Shown here: positions 9,310 to 31,046 of the stretch, in pieces
Numbering within the stretch: the stretch's first letter is position 1
Layout of the letters: each line of letters opens with the position of its first letter
Virus record (IMG/VR): IMGVR_UViG_3300034691_000044
Location: 1 to 64,000 of that record
Reading direction: 5' to 3' (one strand)
From: a virus
Taxonomy: Duplodnaviria > Caudoviricetes
DNA: 64,000 nt
The notes under the pieces: generated by a model
Databases searched by the model: none
What the model saw: only the letters and a program-made list of their open reading frames with translations
Told to the model about the DNA's origin: nothing
Made by a program: the position numbers and the translations under genes

Positions 9310-9311
9310 GA

Positions 9312-9998
9312 TTATTCACCAGTACCGTTGGCCATGGCTTGACGCTGACCCAGGTCTTTCAGTTCGCCCTTGGTCAGTGGAGGCAGCACAGCGATGTTGA
9401 ACTCGGGGACGCAACGCGGAGTCACGACTTCGATGTTGGCACGGCCGGTCTTCTCGCGGTCGAACACCATGTACTCGCGCTCGGACAGTGCATCGAACAG
9501 CACCTTCTCGATGTGCCAGTCGCGGTTGAACGGAATGAAGCGCTGGATGGTGCCGAAGTTTTTGTTCGACACGCACATCAACTCGCCCTTCATGTTTTTC
9601 TTGGTCGGGTTCATGCAGCTGACGCGAACGCGGACCAGCGCCTGAGCTTCACGGCGCAGACGGTTTTTCTTCTGGCCTTCGGTTTCAGCGGCCAGTTCTT
9701 CCGGCGCCAAGGCGGCGGCAGTTGCAGCAGCGAGACTTGGCATCAAAGTAGGGGCAACAGGAGATTTGATCTCGCCATCGTCTTCTTCCACTGGTTTAGC
9801 TACCGCTACCACAGCAGGTGCGGCAACAGGCGCTGGTGCAGGAGTTACCGCAGGCTTGTCAGCAAGTGCAGCAGCTACGACTTCACGCAGCTTTTCGACG
9901 CCCCAACGGCCGTCAATGGTGATGTTCAGGGCAGCTGCACGTTTTTGCAGCAGTTCCAGTTCAGTTGGTGCTTGATCTTGCGAAGTTTGTTCGGACAT
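9312..9998 (-). CDS. Conserved N4 gp55-like protein
   Basis: LVRVRVSCMNPTKK and LPPLTKGELKDLGQRQAM motifs; downstream of the capsid gene. Confidence 0.7.
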   Translation of the reverse strand: MSEQTSQDQAPTELELLQKRAAALNITIDGRWGVEKLREVVAAALADKPAVTPAPAPVAAPAVVAVAKPVEEDDGEIKSPVAPTLMPSLAAATAAALAPEELAAETEGQKKNRLRREAQALVRVRVSCMNPTKKNMKGELMCVSNKNFGTIQRFIPFNRDWHIEKVLFDALSEREYMVFDREKTGRANIEVVTPRCVPEFNIAVLPPLTKGELKDLGQRQAMANGTGE

Positions 9999-10073: not shown

Positions 10074-11264
10074 TTACAGGCGGGCTACAGTCTTGATCAG
10101 ACCGATGCGCTCGGAACGCAGGGTCATGAAGCCGTAGTACCACTTGATGGCCATGAAGCCCATCTCGCCATACGGGTCCAGACGGTCGGCGGTTTCAACG
10201 CCAGGCATCTTCTTGATGATCTTGAACTTGGTCGACTGGCCGTCGGTTTGGAAGCCGATGGTAGTGAACGAGCCTTGACCGATGCAGAGCATCGGGAACA
10301 CGTCGTACTTCACGCCGTCATCGTGGTTGGAAGCATCACCAACTTCGATGGCCGCGCCAGCGCCAGCCCACTTCAGCATTTCCGGCACGATGATGATGCG
10401 GAATTCATCGATCTGGCCGATTTCGCCGATCAGGGTTTCGCCACCGGCAGCATACTTCTCAACAGAGATGAATGCCGGGTTACCGTGCATATCCTTCATG
10501 CCTTTCAGCGTCGGGATCAGCTCGGAGCCGCAGTGCAGAGGACGGGCGCCCGGGATGGTGCGGGTGTCGGTCAGACGGGTGCCGTTGATCTGCGTGATAG
10601 TGCGCGGGGTACGGTTGTTGGTCAGCTGAATGCCCAGGCGCAGCAGGTCGTCGTAGGTGACCAAGTCATCTTTGCCGATAGTTGCGGTGCTGGTAGCGTC
10701 ACCGGCGTAACGGATCACGCCAGCGGCGTTGATCAGGTCGATTTGCAGAGCCGCTTCGGACATCTGGTGTGCACCGGTCACCATTTCACGGGTGATGTGC
10801 ATATCCAGTTCGGCATCGCTGTCGAAGTCCATCGATTCCTGGGTGAATTCGTCGTAGAAACCGAATTTTTCCAGGGTGCCTTCCAGCTCGATACGGGTGA
10901 AACCCACACGGTTAACACGACCGCCGTGTTCGGTCAGGGCCGGCAGTTTTCCCGGGATCAGACCGATGTCTTTGCTGGAACCGTACAGGTTACCGTTGGC
11001 GATTACGGCGCCGTTCGCATCAATACCCTGGTCGTTGACGTTGCGGTCGTCGAGCAGTGGGATGTAGTGGAACTTGGTGATCTTTTTACCCATGTTCTTG
11101 GGCATGGCGGTCACATCGGCCAGCTGGGTGAAGAACTGTTCACGACGAGCTTCGATCAGGGCTTGTTTCTGGTGAAACTCTTCGTAAGCCTGTGGACCGA
11201 TGCTCGAAGGGGTGCCCGGTGGGGCGTTGTAAGACATCGGTTTATAGACGTTTGGCGCTGCCAT
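10074..11264 (-). CDS. Major capsid protein (N4 gp56 family)
   Basis: YIPLLDDRNVNDQGIDANG, GNLYGSSKDIG, GGRVNRVGFTR, DPYGEMGF motifs; strongly biased codon usage. Confidence 0.95.
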   Translation of the reverse strand: MAAPNVYKPMSYNAPPGTPSSIGPQAYEEFHQKQALIEARREQFFTQLADVTAMPKNMGKKITKFHYIPLLDDRNVNDQGIDANGAVIANGNLYGSSKDIGLIPGKLPALTEHGGRVNRVGFTRIELEGTLEKFGFYDEFTQESMDFDSDAELDMHITREMVTGAHQMSEAALQIDLINAAGVIRYAGDATSTATIGKDDLVTYDDLLRLGIQLTNNRTPRTITQINGTRLTDTRTIPGARPLHCGSELIPTLKGMKDMHGNPAFISVEKYAAGGETLIGEIGQIDEFRIIIVPEMLKWAGAGAAIEVGDASNHDDGVKYDVFPMLCIGQGSFTTIGFQTDGQSTKFKIIKKMPGVETADRLDPYGEMGFMAIKWYYGFMTLRSERIGLIKTVARL

Positions 11265-18740: not shown

Positions 18741-19072
18741 TCTACCCTCTCCCACCCTTTGATGAAGTCTTCGTGCTCAACATGCCAGATGTTGGCCCGC
18801 TCGTAGCCGATTGGCCCATTCACTTCCGCTCGCTGCACGACGACCCAGTCACCTTCCTTCACCTGATCCCAGGCACCGGTAATGAGCTGAACCTCCACAT
18901 TGAACTCCGAATCGAACCTTAGCATACCGGTATTTGCCAAAAGGCGAAACCAATAAGGTAAGGGGTCGAATGCACCGCCGAGTCTTGCCGCGATGTAGGA
19001 ATAGGGCTTGTCTGCCCGCTTGTACTTGTCCGCCATGGGAAAGCCGTCCGTCGATAGAATATAGGGGATCAT
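18737..19072 (-). CDS. Hypothetical protein (GDWVV...F..GWERV type)
   Basis: First gene of the minus-strand block; start may be the internal MADKY. Confidence 0.55.
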   Translation of the reverse strand: MIPYILSTDGFPMADKYKRADKPYSYIAARLGGAFDPLPYWFRLLANTGMLRFDSEFNVEVQLITGAWDQVKEGDWVVVQRAEVNGPIGYERANIWHVEHEDFIKGWERVE

Positions 19073-19214
19073 ATACCGTTCGTCGCAGTGGGTGGGAAAT
19101 TTTCATAGACAGGTGAATGCAGGACATATGTAGTGGCCACAGCCACAGCCGACCACCCCCCCGGGGTCCACTTGCTTTCCATTTTCCTCAATGGCTGCGC
19201 TACTGTGTCTGTAC

Positions 19215-19227
19215 GGGCCTTCGGCCC
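19215..19227 (+). promoter_or_regulatory. Putative vRNAP hairpin promoter 1
   Basis: Template (minus) strand reads GGGCC-GAA-GGCCC, the C-GNA-G triloop hairpin type known for N4 vRNAP promoters; at the start of the early region. Confidence 0.7.
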
Positions 19228-19356
19228 TGTAACGGAGTAATCCTGCTCCTACTCATGAGTACACACTATGTTAGTCGAACTTGTATGCATTGCCCTCGTA
19301 TCTCTGTACGTAGCAGATGTATCACGTACTACCTACAAACTGTGTCGTAAGCACTA

Positions 19357-19367
19357 AGCCTTCGGCT
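19357..19367 (+). promoter_or_regulatory. Putative vRNAP hairpin promoter 2
   Basis: Template strand AGCC-GAA-GGCT, 60 nt upstream of the first early gene. Confidence 0.65.
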
Positions 19368-19426
19368 ATGTGGTGGATACCATACCGGTGTTCACCACTT
19401 TCTTATCCCTAGCTAGGAGTTACACC

Positions 19427-19723
19427 ATGTTCAAGCAAATCTTCGCAATGGTCGCCCAACTGGCACTGATGCTCACCAACCTGTTCACTGCTGGCACCAA
19501 GCTGTCCAATGCTGCTGTTCACACTGCATCCTACGTCGAAGGTGCTGCCGAAGGCTTCAATGAAATCGCTGCCCTGGAACGTAACGAGAAACTCGACGCT
19601 CTCCGTGGCAAATTCGACATCAATGCTCGCATCCGTGCCGTTGAACAACAACTCACCGCTTCGGACGCCGAGTCCAAACTCAAACTGCTCCACGCTGAAG
19701 CCAAGAACACTCAAGCTGCTTAA
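19427..19723 (+). CDS. First early protein (N4 gp1 position)
   Basis: AGGAG RBS, highly biased codons, followed by a TTCG hairpin at ~19733-19750. Confidence 0.75.
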   Translation: MFKQIFAMVAQLALMLTNLFTAGTKLSNAAVHTASYVEGAAEGFNEIAALERNEKLDALRGKFDINARIRAVEQQLTASDAESKLKLLHAEAKNTQAA

Positions 19724-19766
19724 CTCTCCATCGGGGGCCTTCGGGCCTCCATTCAGGTGACACACC

Positions 19767-19853
19767 ATGACATTCGAAACATCACTCGCTATCACATGCT
19801 TCACCATCACTGCACTGCTAGTCGTAGCACTCTGGTACTCATCCCCTAAATAG
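19767..19853 (+). CDS. 28-aa membrane peptide
   Basis: AGGTGA RBS; MTFETSLAITCFTITALLVVALWYSSPK; followed by a terminator. Confidence 0.5.
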   Translation: MTFETSLAITCFTITALLVVALWYSSPK

Positions 19854-19876
19854 GGCTGGGTATCAGTTCTTTTTTT
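19852..19876 (+). terminator. Terminator
   Basis: AGGGCTG-GGTAT-CAGTTCT plus T run. Confidence 0.6.
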
Positions 19877-20232
19877 AAAGCACACACAACAGCACACAAC
19901 AAGAGCACACATCCACGTCAAGAGCGCCAGCCTTTGAGACAGTAGGCCAGGAAGACACCCTTTCCTGCTACTCTTTCCCCTTTCCCGCCGTTAGGGGGAC
20001 TCTGAGGCAGTATTACCACTCATCGGCCAGCAAAGCTGACCGTTGCTGCGCAATCGATGTATATATGTGGGGGGAGTAGAGGGAATTGGAGTGAAACAGT
20101 GAGTTTGTTGTGCCAACAACATGCAGGTTTCCCCTTTCCTGTATCCTATCAACACCATTCGTCATTCCTATACACACCTGTGGTGTATCCGTATCCCTTC
20201 GGGTCTGTTGCGGAATCAATCGAGGTCTGATT

Positions 20233-20472
20233 ATGGAATACATGCTGCTTCGTGATGGGTCTGTGAAGGTTGTACCTGAACTGTCCAATAGGATCTCTGT
20301 TCGCAATGAACTCATACGTTCTGACGGTATTGAGTACTACTGGAAAGAGAACGCTGTAGATTGGTGTTGCATACTGGCTAGTACACCTGCTCTGTCAATA
20401 GACAATGTCGAAGTAACTGTCGATTATGTAGATGTGCCTGATGTAATCAAACTTGCCGCAATGCTGGAGTAA
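20233..20472 (+). CDS. Small early protein, C-terminal VP[ED] motif family member 1
   Basis: GAGG RBS; ends VPDVIKLAAMLE. Confidence 0.75.
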   Translation: MEYMLLRDGSVKVVPELSNRISVRNELIRSDGIEYYWKENAVDWCCILASTPALSIDNVEVTVDYVDVPDVIKLAAMLE

Positions 20473-20475
20473 TGT

Positions 20476-20727
20476 ATGAATATGCATGAATACATGCTAT
20501 TGGCTGACGGTTCTGTACTCCCATTTCCCAATGGTGTGCCAACTGCGCATCAAATAGCATATTTGCTTATTGAATATCGTGGTATAGCCTACTATTGGCC
20601 AGGGGCTATCCAATATCTCGTTGAAGGTTGGTATGTACTGCTTCCTGTATTTGAACACGAAGGAGGCACTCGCATAGATTATGCTGATGTACCCGATCTG
20701 ATCAAACTTGCAATAATGCTTACATAG
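20476..20727 (+). CDS. Small early protein, motif family member 2 (paralog of member 1)
   Basis: Shares EYMLL.DGSV, GI.YYW, DY.DVPD.IKLA.ML with the previous gene. Confidence 0.75.
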   Translation: MNMHEYMLLADGSVLPFPNGVPTAHQIAYLLIEYRGIAYYWPGAIQYLVEGWYVLLPVFEHEGGTRIDYADVPDLIKLAIMLT

Positions 20728-20780
20728 TTCCCCTTCGGGGATGAAATAGGCAATTGCCCCTAACTACAGGAGTTATATCC

Positions 20781-21023
20781 ATGCAATGCAATGTATCTAG
20801 CTTGTCTCGTGCTGATGCTACACATCCTATTTGTAAGTACAGCACTGCAACTGAACGTCGTTTACTCAAGCAATTGAGTACTAAGCGTATGCGTCGTATT
20901 GCTGTACCTGACATTGTTGCTGCCATTCATGATGATCATCGTGAGTGTGAGGTAACTGTCATCAAGCCTCGTATGTTTGCACACATTGTCAATTGTGACT
21001 GTGTGCTGTGCTCTCGCCTTTAA
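20781..21023 (+). CDS. Hypothetical Cys/His-rich protein
   Basis: AGGAG RBS; C-terminal H...CxCxxC. Confidence 0.6.
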   Translation: MQCNVSSLSRADATHPICKYSTATERRLLKQLSTKRMRRIAVPDIVAAIHDDHRECEVTVIKPRMFAHIVNCDCVLCSRL

Positions 21024-21039
21024 TTTAGGAGTCATATCC

Positions 21040-21369
21040 GTGAACAATCAACAACGTAAAACCAGTGATGTAATTGCCCTCGCGGTAAATGATCCACGCT
21101 ACTTGCGTGGCAATGACGGTGAGATGTTCTTGTGCCGCATGCTTGAATGTATGCGCATAGAGGGTGTTATCGCCCATCTGGAATGTCACGCTGCCCGTCA
21201 AACAATTGACGAGGCTATCAACGGCAGCTGCACGCTGTACTCCCACTTGTGGGCGAATGACGTGAAAGGGTTCCGCCAAGCGTGCTCCACGTACAAACGC
21301 CGCAAGAACGATATTCGTGTCCAATTCTGGGCCATGCTCTGCATGCAACTCAAAGCTAAAGGGGAATAA
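21040..21369 (+). CDS. Hypothetical early protein
   Basis: AGGAG RBS, GTG start. Confidence 0.65.
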   Translation: MNNQQRKTSDVIALAVNDPRYLRGNDGEMFLCRMLECMRIEGVIAHLECHAARQTIDEAINGSCTLYSHLWANDVKGFRQACSTYKRRKNDIRVQFWAMLCMQLKAKGE

Positions 21370-21372
21370 CCC

Positions 21373-21579
21373 ATGAACAAGTTTCAAATTGTCATCGGAG
21401 CTTTCGCCATCTATGGAATGCTGACCATAGGTTTCAGCTTCCTGGCCTGGATGAATTCTGCCAGCTTGCATGCTGAAAACAAACCAGATGTTTACTTAGG
21501 TAACTTCTGGAAGTGGGGTGTGATCATTATCCTGCTTATCGTTGTCTTTGCATTCTTTGCTGGCCCTGCTAAACCTTAA
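21373..21579 (+). CDS. Small two-TM membrane protein
   Basis: Two hydrophobic segments. Confidence 0.65.
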   Translation: MNKFQIVIGAFAIYGMLTIGFSFLAWMNSASLHAENKPDVYLGNFWKWGVIIILLIVVFAFFAGPAKP

Positions 21580-21590
21580 GGAGTATTCCT

Positions 21591-21716
21591 ATGCCTTCCA
21601 ACATGAACGATTACAACAGCGGCTATGAAGCATTCATGGACGATGAAGACTTTGACCAGACTCAGTCGCAAGATTGGCAAGATGGTTACCTCGACGCACA
21701 AACTGTAGGAGCTTGA
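21591..21716 (+). CDS. 41-aa highly acidic peptide
   Basis: TAAGGAG RBS; MPSNMNDYNSGYEAFMDDEDFDQTQSQDWQDGYLDAQTVGA; below the ORF-track size cutoff. Confidence 0.65.
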   Translation: MPSNMNDYNSGYEAFMDDEDFDQTQSQDWQDGYLDAQTVGA

Positions 21717-21718
21717 TC

Positions 21719-22015
21719 ATGTTCTCTGCTTACTTCCTTACTTGCATGCTCAGTGCTTCGGGCAACTACGGTTGCAACGTGGCCTTCACTGAAATGACTG
21801 CCGATGTTCAAGAACAAAGCCAGTGTGATGAACTGACTGTGGATATGCATCAGTATGTCCTCGATCAAATCGCATCTGAGTTCCCAAGTATGACTGTGGT
21901 CCGCCAGGAACATGGTTGCTACGCCGGTCCTCTGTCTGCTGGTGAGATTGCCCGCGATGAACATGCAAAGCTCTTGAGTGAGGGCATTGAAGCCTCGCTT
22001 TCAGAAATTCCGTAA
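21719..22015 (+). CDS. Hypothetical protein with N-terminal hydrophobic/Cys segment
   Basis: AGGAG RBS, ATG at 21719. Confidence 0.6.
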   Translation: MFSAYFLTCMLSASGNYGCNVAFTEMTADVQEQSQCDELTVDMHQYVLDQIASEFPSMTVVRQEHGCYAGPLSAGEIARDEHAKLLSEGIEASLSEIP

Positions 22016-22080
22016 CCTATATTCCTTTCAGTGTTTACCTATATATGTGATAGAATATTAATTCACTAGGAGGAGTTGTT

Positions 22081-22719
22081 ATGTTTATTGAAAAACCTAT
22101 AACCATCGAAAAGCCGCGCAAATTGATTAATGGGATTGGCGTTAATGATGCCCCTTACTCAGTAAGCTATCGTGAAGACGGTAAGTTAATTACCTGTCCT
22201 TACTACAAGGCATGGGTAGCCATGTTCCAGCGTTGTTATAGCGCTGCATGGCATGAGCGTTACCCGTCATACGTAGGATGTTCGGTAGCACCTGTGTGGC
22301 ATAAATTCACGAGTTTCCGCGAATGGATGCAGACACAGGATTGGGAAACCAAGCAACTGGATAAAGATATAAAAGTACCGGGCAATAAGGAGTACGGGCC
22401 TACTGTTTGTTTGTGGGTGTCCTCGCAAATCAATAGTTTGTTCAATACAGGGGCTCTAGCTAAAAGCGGCCTGCCTGTTGGAGTAACCAAACACTGGAGC
22501 GGACGCTTTGAAGTAGGCGTGAGCTTTGGCACGAGTAAACGTAGCTACGTTGGCAGTTTCAAAACTGTACGTGAGGCTGCTGATGCTTATGTGAAAGCAA
22601 AGGCAGAAGCTATCGCGTTAGCTGCGGACAAGGAACCTGATCCTATAATTCAGGAAGCTGTTCGAGCTTTCGGTGTGCATTACCTACAAAAGCTAAAAAA
22701 TGCAAATACTGCATTCTAA
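22081..22719 (+). CDS. Free-standing HNH-like homing endonuclease with AP2-like C-terminus (paralog A)
   Basis: GIGVND, W..M..RCY, Y.GCSV...W..F..F..W, LDKDIK..GNK.Y.P..CL.V, LPVGV; AT-rich upstream region with extended -10 TGaTAGAAT. Confidence 0.75.
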   Translation: MFIEKPITIEKPRKLINGIGVNDAPYSVSYREDGKLITCPYYKAWVAMFQRCYSAAWHERYPSYVGCSVAPVWHKFTSFREWMQTQDWETKQLDKDIKVPGNKEYGPTVCLWVSSQINSLFNTGALAKSGLPVGVTKHWSGRFEVGVSFGTSKRSYVGSFKTVREAADAYVKAKAEAIALAADKEPDPIIQEAVRAFGVHYLQKLKNANTAF

Positions 22720-22806
22720 TAATACAGAAAGTGCCATATCCGGCGATGAAAACCATACGCCTGTGTGGCCCTTTTGGGCCTTGGCGGTAAGCTAACTGAG
22801 GTGTCT

Positions 22807-23067
22807 ATGACCACTGCAAAAAAACCTGAATCCTTTGCTTCGCACAACCTGGATCACCTGAAAGTGTTGATTGCGCGTGAGATTCGTAAGCAAATCTCTG
22901 AAAACAACATGAAATACATCGTTGCAACCGAAATCTTCGGATTGAGTGGCGCAGCTGTGTCTCGCATTGTTAATTGCAAGGAACTCAGCATGTCGTTCGA
23001 AACGCTGCACAATGCGGCTGTAACGTCAGGCATGATCGTCAGTATGCAACTGTCTGTGCCCAACTAA
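22807..23067 (+). CDS. XRE-like helix-turn-helix protein
   Basis: ATEIFGLSGAAVSRIVN...MSFETL pattern. Confidence 0.65.
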   Translation: MTTAKKPESFASHNLDHLKVLIAREIRKQISENNMKYIVATEIFGLSGAAVSRIVNCKELSMSFETLHNAAVTSGMIVSMQLSVPN

Positions 23068-23076
23068 GGAGCAATC

Positions 23077-23355
23077 ATGCACCGTTTACGACAAGAACTA
23101 GATTTAACCGATGATTCGTTCAGTTACACCATTTTAGGTGGGCGTGAGCCTCTTTATCGTGTCGATAGCGATGGCTATCTGCATAAAGCAGGTGAAATCA
23201 TCGGTAAATTCAAACTGGGCAACAATCAGTGGCATCTGTACATCGGTGACACTTTGTTCATGGATGGGCCTGAAAATGGCCTATTCATGCTCCCCGAGTT
23301 TGAATTGAAGGCTTTGACTGCGCTGGTAAATCAAAAGCGGCCTTCGGCCCTTTAA
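23077..23355 (+). CDS. Hypothetical early protein
   Basis: TAAGGAG RBS. Confidence 0.65.
   Translation: MHRLRQELDLTDDSFSYTILGGREPLYRVDSDGYLHKAGEIIGKFKLGNNQWHLYIGDTLFMDGPENGLFMLPEFELKALTALVNQKRPSAL
23339..23349 (+). promoter_or_regulatory. Putative vRNAP hairpin promoter 3
   Basis: Template strand GGCC-GAA-GGCC with extendable AAAG/CTTT stem, 59 nt upstream of the gp2-like gene. Confidence 0.7.
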
Positions 23356-23407
23356 AGGCAATTGTGCCAATAAACCTCATCTTTTCCGTTATTCTGGAGT
23401 ATTTCCC

Positions 23408-23740
23408 ATGGCTGTTGAACGTAATGCATCCCGTACTGCCCCTGCTACCTCCACTGCTGCTGATCGTACCGCGAAGAAAACCCTCGGGTTCTTCAACGTG
23501 AACATCGAGACCAAAGCCGGCGCACCTGTGCGTCTGGAAGGTATCCGCTTCATCGAAGGCAACAAGCAGCATGAGCAACTGGCTGCGTACCTCTCGGTGT
23601 CCCAGGCCGTCGACAAAGACTACACGCCTGAACAGGTCGTGGAAGAGAAGGCACGTCGCCTCGGTGTCGTGGCTTCCAAGCTGACCTTCAGCTTCAACGC
23701 TACCCGTACCGACGAAGAGTCGATGCTGGACCTGGTGTAA
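23408..23740 (+). CDS. N4 gp2-like ssDNA-binding activator of middle transcription
   Basis: K..GFFNVNI.TK.G...RL..I pattern resembling gp2; follows a hairpin promoter; highly biased codons. Confidence 0.6.
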   Translation: MAVERNASRTAPATSTAADRTAKKTLGFFNVNIETKAGAPVRLEGIRFIEGNKQHEQLAAYLSVSQAVDKDYTPEQVVEEKARRLGVVASKLTFSFNATRTDEESMLDLV

Positions 23741-23744
23741 TCCT

Positions 23745-23782
23745 CTGGCCATCATCCCATTGGGGTGGTGGCCATCATTTTT
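23745..23782 (+). terminator. Terminator
   Basis: TGGCCATCATCCC-ATT-GGGGTGGTGGCCA followed by a T run. Confidence 0.6.
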
Positions 23783-23794
23783 AGGAGCAAATTC

Positions 23795-24079
23795 ATGAGC
23801 AATACCCCTAAGCTGGCCCCTGGCCTGCACGAGTGCCGCATCGTCTCCATTGACTATGCCAAGCATGAGGATTTCATGACTGGTTGTCTTGCTGCTTTGA
23901 GCAAAGATGGCACTGTCATGATTGAGCATGTGTGGTCGTTGCCCGGTATGGTCGAGCTGAAGCCTCACAGCTACGCTGACATCATCAATATGCCTTATGC
24001 ATTGCCTCGTAAGGGTGATCGTCACCATAAACGCAAACCTCAGCCCAATCGTGGGCCAGTGGGGCGAAACCAGTGGTAA
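23795..24079 (+). CDS. Hypothetical protein with basic C-terminus
   Basis: AGGAG RBS. Confidence 0.6.
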   Translation: MSNTPKLAPGLHECRIVSIDYAKHEDFMTGCLAALSKDGTVMIEHVWSLPGMVELKPHSYADIINMPYALPRKGDRHHKRKPQPNRGPVGRNQW

Positions 24080-24170
24080 AAGACATAGGTAGTATCATGT
24101 GGCGCATTCTTGCGTCTATCCTCGTATTTACCCTCATTGCATTGCAATTTATCCCAAAAGGAGTAACACC

Positions 24171-24890
24171 ATGAACCTGAACGACTTTCTGATGATTCTC
24201 GGCGCAGCTGTGTTCATCTTGCCTATCACTTACATGATTGGCTGGGCTCGCCACCAAAAACAACACGAAGGCTGGGTAGCAGACGCTCGTGAGGGCTACT
24301 TCCAAGAGCGTAATGCTCTACGCAATAGCTACGAGAACGCACTGGCGCAGGAACGTAAGACTGTGCGTGTATTGGAGATTCAACTGCTGAAAGCAAACGA
24401 ATCCATCGAAGTGTTAGATCGTGAGGTAGGTAAGTACCGCAGTCAGTGGAAATACGCTGATAATTACCGTAAAGCTATCGTTGAGTACCTCGTAGTCAAT
24501 CATCTGTGGAAGTTTACTGAACATGGAGATGATCCTATGGCCATGATGGCTGAGATTATCAAATGGGAAACCAAGATGGCGCTGGACCCTGCAATCAGCA
24601 AGCCTGCGAAGAATCTGATCACTCGTGGTGTCCGTAAGGGCGCCAAGGCTGGCCGTGAGCAGATGCGTAAGCTGATGCAGAAGTGCATCGACAACCAGGC
24701 AGCAACCATTCGTCATTATGACCAAGAGTTGACTGCTGCCAATCTTCGCCGTATGCGCTTCACCGAAGCAGTGACCAACGTGCTTGACGACAAGATCGCG
24801 CTTAAAAGCGTCCGTAAGTCTATCAAGCAGGGCATCATTGCGGAACACGGGCGTCTGCACGCTGCTGCCGCGAAGAAGGCTGCACAATGA
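24171..24890 (+). CDS. Membrane-anchored coiled-coil protein
   Basis: N-terminal TM segment, coiled coil, WE.K.ALDPAISK.A motif. Confidence 0.7.
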   Translation: MNLNDFLMILGAAVFILPITYMIGWARHQKQHEGWVADAREGYFQERNALRNSYENALAQERKTVRVLEIQLLKANESIEVLDREVGKYRSQWKYADNYRKAIVEYLVVNHLWKFTEHGDDPMAMMAEIIKWETKMALDPAISKPAKNLITRGVRKGAKAGREQMRKLMQKCIDNQAATIRHYDQELTAANLRRMRFTEAVTNVLDDKIALKSVRKSIKQGIIAEHGRLHAAAAKKAAQ

Positions 24891-25294
24891 ACATGCGTGG
24901 CTCTGCTAAATGGCAGAGTTACGCTGCATATCAAGGCTATCACGCCAACATACAGGTCTTTGACGACGAGGAGGACGATCCGATGGCTATCGGCAACAAC
25001 ACTGTAAAACGTGCATTCATCAAGCAGGAAGTACTGTGTGCTGTCCTGCAAAATGGCGAATCCGTACACTTTGAGTCCCGTTTGGGGTTCAATGGTGCGG
25101 ACTATGCCAAACAGGCTCATAAGAAGTTCGGCCCGTGTCGGGTGATCTTCTATCAAGCCAATGAAGCACAAATGTGGCGTGAAATCCGTTGGAAGAACGT
25201 CAACGTTGGTGCTTTATACAAACGCCCTTCGTTTATCACATTAGGGCCTGATAAGGTGCCTGAAAACCTGCGGCTTGCCGCAATGTTGTTGTGA
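24887..25294 (+). CDS. Motif family member 3
   Basis: Ends VPENLRLAAMLL. Confidence 0.75.
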   Translation: MNMRGSAKWQSYAAYQGYHANIQVFDDEEDDPMAIGNNTVKRAFIKQEVLCAVLQNGESVHFESRLGFNGADYAKQAHKKFGPCRVIFYQANEAQMWREIRWKNVNVGALYKRPSFITLGPDKVPENLRLAAMLL

Positions 25295-25629
25295 TCATCA
25301 CACTGCCCGACGGTACGATACATATTTACGATGCAAAAGGTACTTTGTGCGTTCGTATGGGCAATTTGGATGCGGAGAGCTTTATGTCAAAGATGGCGCA
25401 TTTAACGCTTGATGGTGTGTACATTACCAGCTATGTCATGGACCAAAACTGGTATTTGCCCACCAAAATGCAGAAATTAGCTGCAACTTACGAGCAGCAC
25501 CAGGCTTGGTGTCTGTCAGCAGGGCAATGGTACACAATACCCGTTGCAGGGCTAAGATTCTCTCGTTGGGATACCACAAGAACTGAGGATGTACCTGAAA
25601 TGGTACGAACTGCGGAGATTTTACGATGA
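25291..25629 (+). CDS. Motif family member 4
   Basis: Ends VPEMVRTAEILR; GTGA overlap with the previous gene. Confidence 0.7.
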   Translation: MIITLPDGTIHIYDAKGTLCVRMGNLDAESFMSKMAHLTLDGVYITSYVMDQNWYLPTKMQKLAATYEQHQAWCLSAGQWYTIPVAGLRFSRWDTTRTEDVPEMVRTAEILR

Positions 25630-26063
25630 AACAGGTAATTCGTGGTGACATGATGAGTATCTTCGACAAAGTCGATCATTTCATCATATCTGTCGGCAGT
25701 AAGCTCAGAAGTGAGAACAATGAGCTAATAATGTTAAATGGTCTGGCCGGGGCGTTGGGTCTTAAATACCCTACCCTAAAGGTGAAGATGGGAGCGTGGA
25801 TCGCGGGAGAGTGTGGCAGTGAAGGTGAGTTCTACCTTCGTGTCTCGGGGAAGGTTGGCATGCTACAGCATAGCCAGGCTCCTCGGCAAGGGGTGAGCAT
25901 CTCCATTCTGTCTACTGGCCTGCGCCTGCTGGCAGACGAGGCAGAGGCCAACCCAGAAAAGCAATATGCCCTGGAGTGGCCTGGCACCCAGCAGATCGAG
26001 ACCCTGGTAAACCAGATGCTTGATAGGTTGCCGGCCAACGTCCAGGTGTGGCGCCCAGAGTGA
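25626..26063 (+). CDS. Degenerate macrodomain-like protein (N4-type conserved early gene)
   Basis: IRGDMMS..., ELIMLNGLAGALGLKYP, LPANVQVW resemble the phage macro fold; catalytic motifs divergent. Confidence 0.5.
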   Translation: MKQVIRGDMMSIFDKVDHFIISVGSKLRSENNELIMLNGLAGALGLKYPTLKVKMGAWIAGECGSEGEFYLRVSGKVGMLQHSQAPRQGVSISILSTGLRLLADEAEANPEKQYALEWPGTQQIETLVNQMLDRLPANVQVWRPE

Positions 26064-26302
26064 GCACCATGATCATGTCAGCCCGCTATAACATGGTCTC
26101 CCGGGGGCTGGTGGAAGCGGCCACCTCTTGGGTAGGCCGTCCTGCTCATGATAAGGAACAGACCTTCGCCTTGTTCCACGCGGTCAGCGGTGACCTCAAG
26201 GACACGCGGTGGTACGTCTATGGCATTGCCCATGACGCGATCGCTGTCGAGTACAGCAAACTACCGGAGGCAGTGCGCATGGCGTATCTGTTAATTCAAT
26301 GA
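26060..26302 (+). CDS. Motif family member 5
   Basis: Ends LPEAVRMAYLLIQ. Confidence 0.7.
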   Translation: MSTMIMSARYNMVSRGLVEAATSWVGRPAHDKEQTFALFHAVSGDLKDTRWYVYGIAHDAIAVEYSKLPEAVRMAYLLIQ

Positions 26303-26565
26303 GCAAGTCACTGTTTGATCCTTTCGGGGGGGATGTCAACCCACGTATGCCACCGGCACCTGTACGGGTGAAGTGGGACTATGAAAAGCAGGAGGTGGTC
26401 AGTGATGGTCAGGCCAACCTGTTCGACAACTGCTGGTCCTACTTCTTCTATGGTGCCGATGAGGCATTGCAGTGGGGCTTGTCCCGCTACGAAGGTGATC
26501 ACCTGTTTATTGTAGAGGGCGCTGTCCCAGAAGTAGTACGGCTTGCCGTAATGGTGATGGAATGA
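26299..26565 (+). CDS. Motif family member 6
   Basis: Ends VPEVVRLAVMVME. Confidence 0.75.
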   Translation: MSKSLFDPFGGDVNPRMPPAPVRVKWDYEKQEVVSDGQANLFDNCWSYFFYGADEALQWGLSRYEGDHLFIVEGAVPEVVRLAVMVME

Positions 26566-26777
26566 GCACAAAACGTTTAGGTTGGTGCCGGCTGACAGGG
26601 GAACTCGTGCTTGATGCGCAAATCTTAAACATTCCATATCTTCGTGATGATATGGATGTTTACTCCCACAATGGGGCTATGTGGCTAGTATGGACACCTG
26701 AAAGTCAATGCTATTCATATATAACACTTCTGAATGTCCCCGAACTAATTAAATTAGCAATGGTGATGCTCGAATGA
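26562..26777 (+). CDS. Motif family member 7
   Basis: Ends VPELIKLAMVMLE. Confidence 0.75.
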   Translation: MSTKRLGWCRLTGELVLDAQILNIPYLRDDMDVYSHNGAMWLVWTPESQCYSYITLLNVPELIKLAMVMLE

Positions 26778-27064
26778 GGACTTTCGAACGCGCTGCTCCC
26801 TTCGGGGAGTTCAGCATGGGAACTTTGTTCCTTGTGGTGAACGATATACCGGAAGTATGTCATTGCACATACTATAAGACAAACCTGAAGATTGCCCGTG
26901 AGGCTAAGGATGAAGATCCATTTGCTATTGTGTTTCTGCTTACTGAGCAGGGAACTTGGTTCAAAGGTGACTATTGCTACACAGACGGCAGGCATAAATT
27001 CACTCCTGTGGGTAAGTCAGCTGTACCTCAACTAATCCTGATGATGAACGTGGTGAAACCATGA
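26774..27064 (+). CDS. Motif family member 8
   Basis: Ends VPQLILMMNVVKP. Confidence 0.7.
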   Translation: MRTFERAAPFGEFSMGTLFLVVNDIPEVCHCTYYKTNLKIAREAKDEDPFAIVFLLTEQGTWFKGDYCYTDGRHKFTPVGKSAVPQLILMMNVVKP

Positions 27065-27366
27065 GCGTATTATGGATCGTGCTAAACGACGACAAATCCG
27101 CAGTTATTGAGGTGTTTGAAACTATTGAGGCAGATTCTAAGCCTCACTGGGATAAGTTCTTTGAACACAGGGCCGGTAACGTCTTCTGTCGCAGAATTCA
27201 GGATTTAGCATGGGTAAAGCCAGCGCAGTCAAAAGTAACGTGGTTCGTCAACTATTTCTACTGGGAAGACATGTCCCGTTGGGGATATGGTGACCCAACT
27301 GGAATGGGTTGGTCTGCCTGCATGGCCATACCTGAAATTCTCAAAATGGTGGAATTCCTGGAATGA
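27061..27366 (+). CDS. Motif family member 9
   Basis: Ends IPEILKMVEFLE. Confidence 0.7.
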   Translation: MSVLWIVLNDDKSAVIEVFETIEADSKPHWDKFFEHRAGNVFCRRIQDLAWVKPAQSKVTWFVNYFYWEDMSRWGYGDPTGMGWSACMAIPEILKMVEFLE

Positions 27367-27626
27367 GTAAACAAATAACAGTTGGTTTTCTTGATGGAGA
27401 GATAACTGATGTAACTTCTCAATGGATGACAAGTCAAACGGTGGAAGGTCACTTTAGCGTTGGTGATGTGTATGTTTACACTCAAGAGCCTCATGGTATG
27501 CAATGGCGTGTTCTGCAACGTAGTACACGAATAAATGCTACAACTGGCACTTATGCCGCTTTACTACCCTGCAAAGCTGAGCAAGTTCCTGAAATTGTAC
27601 GAATGGTTGCGCTGATGCGCGAGTGA
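27363..27626 (+). CDS. Motif family member 10
   Basis: Ends VPEIVRMVALMRE. Confidence 0.75.
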   Translation: MSKQITVGFLDGEITDVTSQWMTSQTVEGHFSVGDVYVYTQEPHGMQWRVLQRSTRINATTGTYAALLPCKAEQVPEIVRMVALMRE

Positions 27627-27632
27627 GGAATT

Positions 27633-27866
27633 ATGGGCATTGACGATAGGGTGATAGCTTATATCTTTCGAGGTAAGCTGGAAACCGAGGTAGTAAACCG
27701 CTGGAAAGCCCGGGAACGTATGACTCAGCTGAATAACTGCACACTTGCAGAGATTTACTTCTTTGACCCTGATGGGGAGATTTATGTAATGCATCACAGC
27801 AGGGAATATCGAAAAAAGGCCAAAAGTGTACCAGAAGAGATCAAACTAGCGGCAATGCTGCTATAG
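27633..27866 (+). CDS. Motif family member 11
   Basis: Ends VPEEIKLAAMLL. Confidence 0.75.
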   Translation: MGIDDRVIAYIFRGKLETEVVNRWKARERMTQLNNCTLAEIYFFDPDGEIYVMHHSREYRKKAKSVPEEIKLAAMLL

Positions 27867-27873
27867 GGGACGT

Positions 27874-28110
27874 ATGCGTATATTCATTCTGAAGTTCGAC
27901 AATACCGTCGAGGTTACGGAGTCTTTTTCCGACCACCCGTACTACACCCACAAGAACTACCAGAAAGGTCAGGTATTCTGCGAGAGGCTTGTAGGCAAGA
28001 GTGATTATTGGTGCGTACTGCACCGAGACCACAAAGGTAATGGCCCCTCGTGGGTTCATTCTGTAAAAGTACCAAAAGAAGTGCTATTCGCACGAATGCT
28101 CGTAGATTAG
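27874..28110 (+). CDS. Motif family member 12
   Basis: Ends VPKEVLFARMLVD. Confidence 0.7.
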   Translation: MRIFILKFDNTVEVTESFSDHPYYTHKNYQKGQVFCERLVGKSDYWCVLHRDHKGNGPSWVHSVKVPKEVLFARMLVD

Positions 28111-28120
28111 GAGAAGATCC

Positions 28121-29050
28121 ATGAAACTGACACACATGCTCACTGACGACATGCAAAAGGCAAACGAGTATCGATTTGCCAAACAGCATATCGACAAGTA
28201 CATGCGTGACTACGTGCTGAACGACCCTGAAGTCCTGCCCCTGCTGGACAAAGGCGTGGACTTGCTCACCGCCTGGGTCAATACCGAGTTCAGCTACGCA
28301 TCGAAGAACCTCCGGGTCAGTGCCCTACGGGGTATGGACCTGCGTCAGCTCGTTACTGATCTGATTGTGGCCTCGGCCTTCTGCCAGGTGGAAGAACTGT
28401 TCACCAGCTTCACAGCGCGCATGGCCGGCATCCTCGGCTGGGACGATAAGAAGGCCAGCATCACTACCATCGCGGAAATCACCGCGGTGCTATGCGACAC
28501 CGATCTGTATGACCTGACCCAGGCCAACCGGTTCGGCAGCTGGAACATCATCAGCAACATCACGCTGTCCTTGCAATTGCAGGAGTACATCAGCAACTGC
28601 GCATATCTGCCTCCGCTGGTGCATCCACCGAAGAAGCTGCGCCACAACAAGGACACGCCGTATCTGACCATTGGTCAAGACTCGGTGATCCTGAATAAGG
28701 GTCACCATAACGACGATGTGTGCCTTGATGTACTGGATTCAAAGAATTCCGTGGCATTGAGCCTGGACCTGGACTTCCTCTGCAAAGTAGAGGAAGAATC
28801 AAACAGTGAGTTGGATACTCCCGAAAAGCAAACCATGTGGTTGAACATGAAGCGCCAGTCGCACGAGTTCTACTTGCTCATGGCTGGCCAAGGCAATAAG
28901 TTCTACTTGCATCACAAATACGATAAACGTGGGCGTATCTACGCCAATGGTTATCACATCTCGACTCAGGGTGCGCCCTTCAAAAAGGCATGCTTAGAGT
29001 TCGCCAATAAAGAAGTCGTATCCGACATCCCACAGGAGTTTCAATTATGA
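28121..29050 (+). CDS. RNA polymerase II subunit 1 (N4 gp15-like)
   Basis: FYL.HKYDKRGRIYANGYHISTQG T7-like RNAP motif. Confidence 0.92.
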   Translation: MKLTHMLTDDMQKANEYRFAKQHIDKYMRDYVLNDPEVLPLLDKGVDLLTAWVNTEFSYASKNLRVSALRGMDLRQLVTDLIVASAFCQVEELFTSFTARMAGILGWDDKKASITTIAEITAVLCDTDLYDLTQANRFGSWNIISNITLSLQLQEYISNCAYLPPLVHPPKKLRHNKDTPYLTIGQDSVILNKGHHNDDVCLDVLDSKNSVALSLDLDFLCKVEEESNSELDTPEKQTMWLNMKRQSHEFYLLMAGQGNKFYLHHKYDKRGRIYANGYHISTQGAPFKKACLEFANKEVVSDIPQEFQL

Positions 29051-29487
29051 GCACTGAAAAGCAGCTGTACCTTGCACTGAAGAACATTCTGGAGCCATAC
29101 CGTTCAGGTATGGAATCGGGAGACTGGTGCGGTGAGCCAAATGCCCAGACAAAAAAGGAAATTGCTGACGCTGAGGAAGCATTAGCGTGCTTTGAACTGG
29201 ACCTTGGCCCGTTGCCTGATTGGGCATCTGCCCACAACATTGCACAAGAACCTGTGACATATGCACAGCTTTTCACCCGGAACCCTCGCCGTAATGGCAA
29301 TGCCATGATCTTCTACGTAGGTACTTCCCATTTCGGTGTTATCACCGACATGGGTAACGCTATGACACTGAGTCTTGTGGAGTTGCATCAATTGTACGAG
29401 ATTGGTGACTACATCATGGACGAACGTGGTTATGAGAAGCGTAAGCGCCAACGTGACGATTATATGGTTCCGTTGGAGGCTGACTGA
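29047..29487 (+). CDS. Hypothetical protein inserted between the RNAP subunits
   Basis: AQL.TRN.RRNGNA...VITDMGN motif. Confidence 0.65.
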   Translation: MSTEKQLYLALKNILEPYRSGMESGDWCGEPNAQTKKEIADAEEALACFELDLGPLPDWASAHNIAQEPVTYAQLFTRNPRRNGNAMIFYVGTSHFGVITDMGNAMTLSLVELHQLYEIGDYIMDERGYEKRKRQRDDYMVPLEAD

Positions 29488-29777
29488 TGGCAAGACTGTT
29501 CATTCGGCATAAACCGGTGGATTGCAACGTACAGATGGGCAAGTCCAGCGAAAATATGTTCTTAATGCGTCGTGATGTACTAACTGCGCATGGAATTAGC
29601 CTGGATGCTTACTCAATCGACTGTGCATACGTCTGTGTTGCGCATGAAGGTAAGATATGGGCAGTAAGGAGCTTCGGGGCACACCCTGAAAGCTCCATTG
29701 TCCGTGTGCAGTGCGTTCCTCTAGACGATCAGCCATGTGTGCAACAGATGCTGCTGACTGGCATGATTCTCAATTAA
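29487..29777 (+). CDS. Hypothetical protein, possible divergent motif-family member
   Basis: Ends QPCVQQMLLTGMILN. Confidence 0.6.
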   Translation: MARLFIRHKPVDCNVQMGKSSENMFLMRRDVLTAHGISLDAYSIDCAYVCVAHEGKIWAVRSFGAHPESSIVRVQCVPLDDQPCVQQMLLTGMILN

Positions 29778-29792
29778 TTAAGGTGAATAACC

Positions 29793-31046
29793 ATGCGTAC
29801 ATACACTGCTTTTGAATTTCTGTGCATCGACATAGCGAACCAGAACGACTTAGATAAGAAGCTGTTCGAAGAACGAATCCAGTGGGTGAAAGAGAATTTC
29901 AACCGCCTGCTGTTCCTTCAAACCAGCAAGAAAGAACGTCCGCTGTACCTCAAGGCTGTGAACGCCCTGTACCGCGCCTGCAAGGGCGAGGCTATCGGCC
30001 ACATGGTTGGCCTAGATGCAACCTGCTCGGGCATGAGCATCATGTCCGTAGTCACCAAGTGCTATAAAGGATGCCTGGCCACAAACCTGATCGACCCGGA
30101 CTCCCGGAACGATGCCTACACCATGGTCACCAACGCCGCTGGCGATATGCTGGATGGCGACTTGATCGTCACCCGGCAAGATGCCAAAGACGCAACCATG
30201 ACCACTCTGTACGGTTCCCAAGCCAAGCCGCGTGAGATCTTCGGTACTGATACCGAGGAACTGGATGCTTTCTATGCTGGCTTGGTGGCGACTGCACCAA
30301 AGGCTGTGGAACTGCTGGGTGACCTGCGCATGGCGTGGCAACCCTTTGCCCTGGAACACCGTTGGGTATGCCCGGACAACTTCAACGTCCGCATCAAGGT
30401 GATGCAGAAGGTGGAAGGTGAGCGTGTGGAAGTCGACGAACTCGACGGTGCATCGTTCACCTACGAGTATTACGTCAACGAAGGCACCAAAACTGACCTG
30501 AAGCTAGTGGCCAATGTGACTCACTCACTGGACGCCTACCTGCTCCGTTCTATGGAGCGCCGCTGCAACTACGATCAATCCAAAGTGCAAACTGCCCTAT
30601 ATATCTTGGGCGGGATGCAAGATGGTCGCCGTATGGGCGAGGAAGTCGAACAAGACTTGGGCGAAGCCTCCAACCTTGCACAACAGCTCATTGCTGTGTG
30701 GGGTGGCTGTGAAATGCCTGATGCTCGCTTGCTCAACGAGCTTACTCGTACTGACGTGCAGTTCATGAGTGATAAGCACATTGAGCAGATGATTGCATTG
30801 GCAAACCAGTTGCTGGAACGTGAACCATTCGAAATCGTGACGGTGCATGATGAATTTAAATGCCACGCCAACAATTGCAACTGGATGCGTCTCACTTACG
30901 CACAAATCATGGCCGACCTGGCCCGTGCGCGCGTACTTGAGGACATCTACGAGCAGATCACCGGCATGACGCCGACTTACAAAGACCAAATGGATGGAGA
31001 CGAGCTTGCAGCTCTGATCCTGAACTCAAACTACGCCTTGTCGTAA
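29793..31046 (+). CDS. RNA polymerase II subunit 2 (N4 gp16-like)
   Basis: LDATCSG (motif A), R.DAK.ATMT..YGS (B), ANVTHSLD, TVHDEF (C). Confidence 0.93.
   Translation: MRTYTAFEFLCIDIANQNDLDKKLFEERIQWVKENFNRLLFLQTSKKERPLYLKAVNALYRACKGEAIGHMVGLDATCSGMSIMSVVTKCYKGCLATNLIDPDSRNDAYTMVTNAAGDMLDGDLIVTRQDAKDATMTTLYGSQAKPREIFGTDTEELDAFYAGLVATAPKAVELLGDLRMAWQPFALEHRWVCPDNFNVRIKVMQKVEGERVEVDELDGASFTYEYYVNEGTKTDLKLVANVTHSLDAYLLRSMERRCNYDQSKVQTALYILGGMQDGRRMGEEVEQDLGEASNLAQQLIAVWGGCEMPDARLLNELTRTDVQFMSDKHIEQMIALANQLLEREPFEIVTVHDEFKCHANNCNWMRLTYAQIMADLARARVLEDIYEQITGMTPTYKDQMDGDELAALILNSNYALS

Follow-up and report, generated by a model that had tools for sequence, protein, structure and literature searches.

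Here we describe a family of small phage proteins encoded by twelve open reading frames (ORFs) on the plus strand, between positions 20233 and 28110, of a 64-kb stretch of viral DNA (IMG/VR record IMGVR_UViG_3300034691_000044, positions 1 to 64,000; hereafter the window) that is part of a 73.6-kb single-contig genome. The twelve ORFs are homologous, fast-evolving copies of one previously undescribed protein family, and all of them end in the same C-terminal motif, the tail. An earlier note on this DNA had taken the tail for a constant docking tag carried by unrelated bodies. From predicted structures we conclude that the members share one small alpha/beta fold and that the 'tag' is its last helix, not a peptide on unrelated bodies. 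The explanation that we think probable, if well short of certain, is a single old and rapidly diverging paralogue family of small (71-135 amino acids, aa), single-domain early-region proteins, ending in this helix and serving as a scaffold for diversifying binders. In a phage collection, the 20-30 kb stretch of the window has a sole match, Pseudomonas phage phCDa (84 % identity over 29 % of the query), which belongs to Schitoviridae, Shizishanvirus, and has P. fluorescens as host. Judged by sequence similarity, the source of the window is an N4-like (Schitoviridae, Shizishanvirus-like) Pseudomonas phage.

The tail is real and specific to these genes. All twelve ORFs that the earlier note had considered clear cases are present on the plus strand with the starts it assigned, each ending in the motif it described, and the proline stands 11 or 12 residues from the end in 12 out of 12. 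The motif reads [VIL]-P-[ED]-x-[IV]-[KR]-[LM]-A-x-[ML]-[LV] followed by one or two final residues, which vary (E, T, L, R, Q, P, D). We built an 11-column position-specific scoring matrix (PSSM) from the tails and scanned it over 102,785 six-frame positions of the 73.6-kb genome. The 12 tails score 23.2-34.7 bits and the best non-member position 13.7 bits. When each tail is left out of its own matrix, 9 of the 12 still score above every non-member, two fall below 1 position, and the tail of the ORF at 26774 falls below 14. A full-length family hidden Markov model (HMM) recovers exactly 12 ORFs of the genome at E 2e-19 to 9e-7, with the next ORF at E 0.76. The expectation that hits would be confined to these C-termini was thus borne out by a genome scan in which both PSSM and HMM single out the twelve.

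Conservation of the tail is at the level of protein rather than of a DNA or RNA element, since its codons differ synonymously from copy to copy (CCT, CCC, CCG and CCA for Pro; GCC, GCA and GCG for Ala). The tail codons are also not homogenized within the window, which argues against recent gene conversion. Among 135 database proteins matching the family, 119 have a tail scoring >12 bits within 3 residues of the end; 15 have, by eye, weaker or extended tails and the remaining one, a 1111-aa match without tail, is spurious. Some members continue for 4-12 residues after the helix and one Littlefixvirus paralogue for about 24, and such extensions indicate that the tail is no detachable terminal peptide. 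We also scanned IMG/VR with a degenerate DNA pattern written for a single tail variant (about 36 bits by rough estimate), which gave 9 stretches. Five of these are on contigs that are Shizishan-like by name. Of the four that were read, one belongs to a family member encoded on a contig of 43.9 kb. The other three are on related contigs of 15.8-44.2 kb (L016 7780-7808, L018 8744-8772 and L020 9211-9239), where 12 residues that agree with the near-consensus tail of the ORF at 27633 in all but one residue sit inside a larger unrelated protein and not at its C-terminus; this match may be due to chance.

Whether the bodies upstream of the tail are unrelated, as the earlier note held, depends on how they are compared: the statement stands for pairwise sequence search and fails for the family alignment, for some profile pairs and for predicted structure. 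Body-only phmmer searches find phCDa orthologs for 11 of the 12 members (none for 26299), together with the group formed by 20233 and 20476, and a single weak link across paralogues, from the 27363 body to phCDa gp47 (E 5.9e-5). The bodies look unrelated by eye because pairwise phmmer finds almost only orthologs and the 20233/20476 group. For a wider view, arrays were fetched and compared using as anchor the gene of RNAP1, the N4 gp15-like small subunit of the phage RNA polymerase II (28121..29050, plus strand). We used MAFFT to align 77 members taken from the window and from seven IMG/VR relatives, whose RNAP1 proteins are 85-99 % identical to that of the window. At least 90 % of these members have a Trp some 20 residues ahead of the Pro, a majority have a Tyr some 8 residues further towards the N-terminus, and at the N-terminus a hydrophobic strand leads into a D-G hairpin, whose Asp is a majority residue outside the tail. 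Across 185 non-redundant members one column is aromatic in 99 %, the Trp is present in 94 % and the hairpin D and G in 64 % and 51 %; the information in the tail columns totals about 29 bits.

Searched against 1.84 billion proteins, the 77-member profile returns 105 cluster representatives (50 % identity) at E <= 1e-3, nearly all over the full profile length, and all of these roughly 105 clusters fall in Pseudomonas N4-like phages. Body-only hhalign comparisons between 17 body groups give E < 1e-3 in 5 of 136 pairs and in 0 of 136 reversed controls. None of the 10 members scanned against Pfam (all but 27633 and 27874) passes the cut-off, the weak matches of E 0.017-0.09 lying below gathering scores, and none of the 12 has a PHROGs match at E <= 0.01. 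All 12 window ORFs combine a full-length HMM match, a near-terminal tail and a Trp about 20 residues upstream of it.

Structure prediction points the same way. We obtained AlphaFold2 models of two of the 12 members, 20233 (from a 59-row alignment) and 27061 (25 rows), which have no detectable sequence similarity to each other. The 20233 model (predicted local distance difference test, pLDDT, 92.4; predicted template modeling score, pTM, 0.81) has strands at 2-6 and 11-14, a helix at 20-29, strands at 32-38 and 44-48, a short helix and the tail helix at 70-78. The 27061 model (pLDDT 87.0, pTM 0.75) has strands at 3-8 and 15-21, a helix at 27-33, strands at 41-49, 56-67 and 81-86 and the tail helix at 92-100. 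Both follow the order beta-beta-alpha-beta-beta-(beta)-alpha, with the tail as last helix. Confidence within that helix is pLDDT 93-94 in the first model and 79 then 65 in the second. Neither model has a low-confidence linker before it: no residue falls below pLDDT 50 and the means of 10-residue blocks are at least 77 in both. The fold prediction proposed by the earlier note, made here for two members, therefore gave one common fold in which the helix is a structural element, an outcome close to the one that the note itself had named as speaking against a modular tag.

Foldseek searches of the two models against BFVD connect the subfamilies. Among the matches listed for 20233 are phCDa gp27, gp28, gp40, gp43, gp46, gp42 and gp44 (TM-scores 0.45-0.95), and among those listed for 27061 are phCDa gp45, gp48 and gp46, one 98PfluR60PP, two Littlefix and two phi176 proteins. 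By exact-sequence look-up, every listed phCDa match (7/7 and 3/3) and every listed 98PfluR60PP and Littlefix match is a tail-bearing member. The matches listed cover at least eight further phCDa paralogues, and gp46 is matched by both models. The top non-orthologous match listed for 27061 is a 92-aa 98PfluR60PP protein (probability 1.00, TM 0.61/0.66). In the PDB, nothing reaches E <= 1e-3 by Foldseek. In VIA-align comparisons with 48,161 chains, the highest Z is 4.4 for 20233 and 5.3 for 27061 (a phage P1 connector chain, root-mean-square deviation, rmsd, 4.4 A), values that by the tool's own warning are common for unrelated chains at this level. ESM Atlas look-alikes of 20233 reach best feature scores of 0.83-0.85, within the chance range, with an Atlas model of pLDDT 0.42 and structure rows of TM < 0.5. 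Going by the two models, no known fold is assignable to the family.

Arrays of this family turn over rapidly. The seven relatives each carry 6-15 C-terminal tails within 10 kb upstream of RNAP1, and phCDa carries 14. After five fragments had been dropped, 84 ORFs remained for body grouping and formed the 17 groups, with 7-14 members per locus and clear differences in presence and absence. Relatives thus carry arrays differing in number and content, as the earlier note had predicted. Pooled over the orthologs of window and phCDa, bodies are 49 % identical and tails 74 %, compared with 90.9 % for RNAP1. Even the relative L002, with an RNAP1 99 % identical, has a mosaic array: blocks of 77-98 % nucleotide identity stand next to two bodies without nucleotide similarity, and similarity resumes at the first tail codons, at 26524 and 27827. 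A deletion in L002 corresponding to window 24896-25545 has removed the third member of the window array and most of the fourth; what it left at L002 7340-7471 is a 43-aa ORF still ending in the tail of the fourth.

In phCDa (L001) at about 10115-10345, and likewise in relative L007 at 9283-9513, we observed a 76-aa member with a near-consensus tail that is absent from the GenBank annotation. It overlaps gp47, annotated from a TTG start, the N-terminus of which was probably mis-called. Outside the Pseudomonas groups, where our comparison covered three of many other Schitoviridae genera, Klebsiella pKP-BM327-1.2, Pectobacterium CB4 and Pseudomonas Holyagarpour have no early-strand C-terminal tail and no HMM match below E 0.26. 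A literature search found no paper on the family, and supplementary gene-level tables could hold more. PMC7650795 names phCDa once, in a taxonomy table, and is without the terms 'paralog', 'duplicat', 'early genes' and 'C-terminal'.

How might such proteins work? If the scaffold explanation is right, each copy would fold as beta-hairpin / helix / beta-hairpin / (short strand) / C-terminal helix. The sole features conserved family-wide are hydrophobic helix positions 4, 6, 9 and 10, Ala 7, the Trp and the second aromatic column in the central strands. Helix and aromatic strands would pack together as the keystone of a minimal scaffold, leaving the remaining surface free to vary. Given their location, the copies would be made immediately after infection, and they may bind or inhibit different host proteins stoichiometrically, in host takeover or anti-defence. 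Binders are suggested by where the genes lie, by their small products without catalytic motifs, and by the expansion, turnover and rapid divergence of the family.

Several observations weigh against a scaffold whose helix is only structural. No signal at E < 1e-3 is seen in 131 of the 136 body-only profile pairs, and TM-scores across subfamilies, 0.45-0.66, are modest for small proteins. Among the 185 members the acidic position of the helix is conserved in 87 % and the basic one in 82 %; by helix geometry these polar positions are probably solvent-facing, and a purely structural role needs none of them. As to early expression, the RNA-library evidence is limited to contigs from a relative, in a single metatranscriptome that may contain carried-over DNA. 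A further point concerns the tail itself, which differs from lineage to lineage in all paralogues. Gly at position 11 occurs in 4 of 83 Shizishan-like and 10 of 10 Littlefixvirus tails, an acidic position 2 in 74/83 versus 2/10 and Ala at position 7 in 59/83 versus 2/10, counts which, like those for Met at position 6 (31/83 versus 10/10), come from related sequences, so that their Fisher significance is overstated. Yet the 'MEYMLL' subfamily, to which 20233 and 20476 belong, has a match at E 4.7e-5 (best reversed control 0.11) in the body of ORF 2748 from 98PfluR60PP, and comparisons among the Littlefixvirus paralogues detect no similarity (best E 0.035, control 0.025).

Littlefixvirus tails read P-x-x-[LVI]-[QKR]-M-x-x-L-[IV]-G-x-x, and 98PfluR60PP has 5 of them at C-termini and Littlefix 6; in either phage, one additional copy continues for about 24 residues beyond the helix. 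A third signature, P-K-[ED]-[IL]-x-L-x-x-x-L-L-x-G-[DE], marks the L009 lineage (RNAP1 67 % identical). The four tail-bearing ORFs of L009 have bodies without significant match to any Shizishan subfamily (best E 0.0046-0.01), which makes this lineage unusable for testing concerted evolution. Another cross-lineage pair involves the 26299/26562 groups, at E of about 5e-4 to 7.5e-4. There is thus a thin case, resting on one clear cross-lineage pair, that at least one paralogue, of the MEYMLL type, predates the split of the lineages. If the subfamilies do predate it, the tails changed in concert, and such a lineage-wide shift would be explained better by a common partner that co-evolves, by mutual binding or by old gene conversion than by a passive scaffold.

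This pattern gives some indirect weight to an adaptor, in which the fold is shared, the conserved helix docks one common phage or host partner and the variable remainder recognizes different targets. We regard it as a possibility to be taken seriously, though not as a likely one. It would account for tail signatures that are lineage-specific across all paralogues in Shizishan-like phages, Littlefixvirus and L009, and for the concerted change implied by a MEYMLL body common to lineages whose own paralogues are dissimilar. It would also account for polar positions 2 and 5 being kept across proteins otherwise 13-20 % identical, and the lack of homogenized tail codons speaks against recent gene conversion as the cause. 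However, cross-lineage orthology amounts to one clear pair (E 4.7e-5) and two modest ones (E 5e-4 to 1.2e-3), and independent lineage-specific expansions or old gene conversion could yield the same pattern. Moreover, unlike in known docking peptides, no flexible linker precedes the helix. The stronger form of the idea, in which the terminal helix is a co-evolving docking surface, lineage-specific in all paralogues, that plugs a dozen target-recognition bodies into one hub, strikes us as a little more doubtful.

The helix could also be an oligomerization element that joins co-expressed paralogues into homo- or hetero-oligomers, which we consider improbable. Translational coupling through ATGA and GTGA overlaps would favor equimolar products, a helical-wheel reading makes the helix hydrophobic over more than half of its circumference, and concerted lineage-specific tails would also fit mutual binding. 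Yet four members (20233, 20476, 27633 and 27874) have no overlap with a following member gene, and a fixed assembly would not easily tolerate an array content of 7-14 members. A prediction of the 20233 homodimer (2 copies) returned 'no answer' with a score of 0.00 and is evidence neither way.

A shared degron limiting the lifetime of early proteins, which the earlier note had offered as an alternative, would suit a motif that is C-terminal and hydrophobic, but it is now very unlikely: the last one or two residues differ, the conserved part is the helix rather than the terminus, 4-24 extra residues follow the helix in several members, and the segment is modeled as helix (pLDDT 93-94; 79 then 65) and not as a disordered end. 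A nucleotide-level element (a ribosome-binding or coupling signal, promoter or recombination site) with the peptide as by-product, to which the tails abutting the next start codon in the coupled block and the resumption of L002 homology at tail starts might have pointed, is excluded as main cause and deserves hardly any credence, since almost every conserved residue varies synonymously and the motif is kept both by uncoupled members and by 119 of 135 database proteins.

The scaffold explanation further draws on where the genes lie. The array is located on the plus strand immediately upstream of RNAP1 (28121) and RNAP2 (29793), and 12 of the roughly 28 ORFs on this strand from 19.4 to 31.0 kb belong to the family, which takes up about 3.3 kb or 4.5 % of the genome. 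The RNAP1 protein is 90.9 % identical to that of phCDa, 61 % to those of Littlefixvirus (98PfluR60PP and Littlefix) and about 53 % to those of Litunavirus (LIT1 and relatives). The array position is the counterpart of the annotated early regions in LIT1 and CB4, and synteny with phCDa, LIT1, CB4 and Littlefix identifies the members, by location only, as N4-like early-region genes. In N4, the RNAPII genes are early genes and the DNA end with the early genes enters the cell first. The GC content is 0.465-0.498 at 20-28 kb versus 0.53-0.56 at 1-20 kb, the late region being higher. Overlaps of 4 nucleotides (nt), ATGA, occur at six consecutive junctions from 26048 to 27626, and a GTGA overlap occurs at 24887/25291. 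A sigma-70 promoter scan of window 18800-30000 gave no promoter signal for the array (7 sites versus 13.7 +/- 3.3 in shuffled sequences); going by sequence, such a deficit would be compatible with phage polymerases as the transcribing enzymes. One contig of 3.5 kb, from an RNA-labeled metatranscriptome of peat, matches window 23369-27158 in four separate pieces, all conserved, and skips the variable cassettes. This contig comes from a related phage, and the contigs show neither transcription nor its level.

The members are numbered here in order along the plus strand, each with the score of its tail and its E value against the family HMM. Members 1 (20233..20472, 79 aa; 31.8 bits, E 9e-18; tail helix encoded by 20434-20469) and 2 (20476..20727, 83 aa; 31.0 bits, E 1.8e-16) both belong to the MEYMLL subfamily. 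After a gap the array continues with member 3 (24887..25294, 135 aa; 29.9 bits, E 5e-8), the ortholog of phCDa gp39, which has a longer N-terminal part. Member 4 (25291..25629; 27.3 bits, E 2e-19) has 112 aa if read from GTG 25291, with an alternative ATG at 25357, and its phCDa ortholog gp40 is matched by the member-1 model with Foldseek probability 0.98 and TM 0.60/0.45. Member 5 (26048..26302; 24.6 bits, E 2.9e-10) has 84 aa from GTG 26048; the alternative start ATG 26069, giving 77 aa, is the annotated start of phCDa gp42.

Member 6 (26299..26565, 88 aa; 28.8 bits, E 1e-7) shares a 4-nt ATGA overlap with the next gene, member 7 (26562..26777, 71 aa; 31.0 bits, E 1.2e-10), whose phCDa ortholog gp43 is again matched by the member-1 model (probability 0.91, TM 0.56/0.61). 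The most deviant tail, with Q at position 2 and M at position 7, is that of member 8 (26774..27064, 96 aa; 23.2 bits, 7.6 bits on leave-one-out, E 9e-7). Member 9 (27061..27366, 101 aa; 26.3 bits, E 3.8e-19) represents a Trp-rich subfamily and member 10 (27363..27626, 87 aa; 28.8 bits, E 1.7e-9) is the ortholog of phCDa gp46. The tail nearest to the consensus ends member 11 (27633..27866, 77 aa; 34.7 bits, E 1.8e-11), and the body of member 12 (27874..28110, 78 aa; 25.2 bits, E 5.9e-11) clusters with the MEYMLL group.

A possible thirteenth member proposed by the earlier note, 29487..29777 (plus strand), does not belong to the family and lacks all three of the features that the twelve ORFs combine. 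Its end scores 8.4 PSSM bits, it has no family-HMM match, hhalign of its ortholog profile reaches a probability of 1.8 % over 11 columns, and its phCDa ortholog gp52 is not among the BFVD matches listed for either model. It represents instead a separate small family located between RNAP1 and RNAP2 with a strongly conserved C-terminal motif of its own. This family is present in 6 relatives, and a distant ortholog in L009 ends in a Gly-capped helix of the L009 type.

A second non-member lies inside the array: 25626..26063 (plus strand) encodes 145 aa with a weak PHROG 'phosphatase' match (phrog_335, E 5.6e-6) and no Pfam or PDB sequence match. A gene with the same conserved C-terminal motif lies within the arrays of L009, Littlefixvirus and LIT1, and the product of 25626 is an obvious candidate partner of the family.

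Between the two blocks of the family, 22081-22719 (plus strand) encodes an HNH endonuclease of 212 aa (phrog_953, E 1.9e-70). The close relative L002 has nothing that matches the stretch around it (about 21721-22718) at the nucleotide level, and within 19.0-31.1 kb this stretch alone is left entirely uncovered by the contigs of three DNA runs; by these comparisons it resembles a mobile insertion peculiar to this genome. Further along, a 110-aa ORF at 23408-23740 (plus strand) matches phrog_6271 'toxin' (E 1.5e-12), and LIT1 and CB4 annotate a 'toxin' at the equivalent place. Immediately 3' of it, at 23746-23774, a hairpin with a 13-bp stem and a T-run forms the strongest terminator-like site of the region. 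Another hairpin, GC-rich with a TTCG loop and without T-run, directly follows the stop codon of member 2 (20728-20750).

The closest known proteins are themselves unannotated. Those of phCDa (gp27-29, gp39-48), Littlefix (gp49-52, gp54-56) and 98PfluR60PP are true homologues linked by HMM, hhalign and Foldseek; they are syntenic, upstream of RNAP1, of equal size and with an equal C-terminal helix, and are annotated only as 'hypothetical protein', the Littlefixvirus tail signature being different. LIT1 gp18 (Litunavirus) occupies the same slot, between the 'phosphatase' gene and RNAP1, and ends in a Pro-capped helix. It is a borderline case only (HMM E 0.0036; hhalign E 6e-4 over 29 columns), present as a single copy and not in an array; LIT1 gp20-22, between RNAP1 and RNAP2, have no significant profile match. 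The two phi176 proteins matched by the 27061 model have 93 and 90 aa (Foldseek probability 0.97 and 0.72) and are possible further relatives.

Among proteins of known structure, the best full-length PDB arrangement match of 20233 is the RNase PH-type C-terminal subdomain (8r1o_D, 3hkm_A, 1udn_A; Z 4.4, rmsd 2.9 A, 53 residues). Several RNase PH members are listed, with Z < 5 and identities of 5-11 %, and what is matched is one subdomain within a bigger enzyme; judged from the model, the likeness is probably a common two-layer arrangement only. The T4 Dmd antitoxin (5hy3_B), also a small early phage protein, aligns with the 20233 model at Z 3.2 (rmsd 2.1 A, 47 of 57 residues) and with the 27061 model at Z 3.0 (rmsd 2.9 A, 51 residues). 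The antitoxin acts directly on two toxins of the host, RnlA and LsoA, and inhibits them. With a Z far below the level that the tool treats as meaningful, no sequence similarity and no C-terminal helix in Dmd, the likeness would be an analogy in mode of action rather than a sign of membership.

A conserved terminal element on divergent proteins is also known from poxvirus ankyrin/PRANC (F-box-like) proteins, the ClpX-binding peptide of SspB and the targeting peptide of T4 internal proteins. In these the tag is separable or on a flexible linker and the partner is known, whereas here the element is part of the domain. An SspB-type adaptor has a body that binds the substrate and, joined to it through a flexible linker, a short docking peptide at its end; we rejected this assignment, as both models lack a low-confidence linker before the helix. 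An ssrA-like or ClpX degron has a conserved extreme C-terminus, with free carboxylate and defined last residues, on an unstructured end, and was likewise rejected on the variable last residues, the extensions of 4-24 residues and the helical segment.

Fast-diverging copies of a tiny scaffold, kept in numbers of 7-16 at the DNA end that bears the early genes, are likely aimed at variable host functions, for which defence systems are the obvious candidates. The family offers a compact scaffold, one face of which is defined and constant while other surfaces vary, and its three lineages with three tail signatures form a natural comparison set. If the helix is structural, the array would be an ordinary, though unannotated, ORFan expansion. 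If instead it docks a common partner, the family would represent a new kind of phage adaptor system, a combinatorial arsenal with a logic like that of viral F-box/PRANC adaptors but built on a new 75-residue fold.

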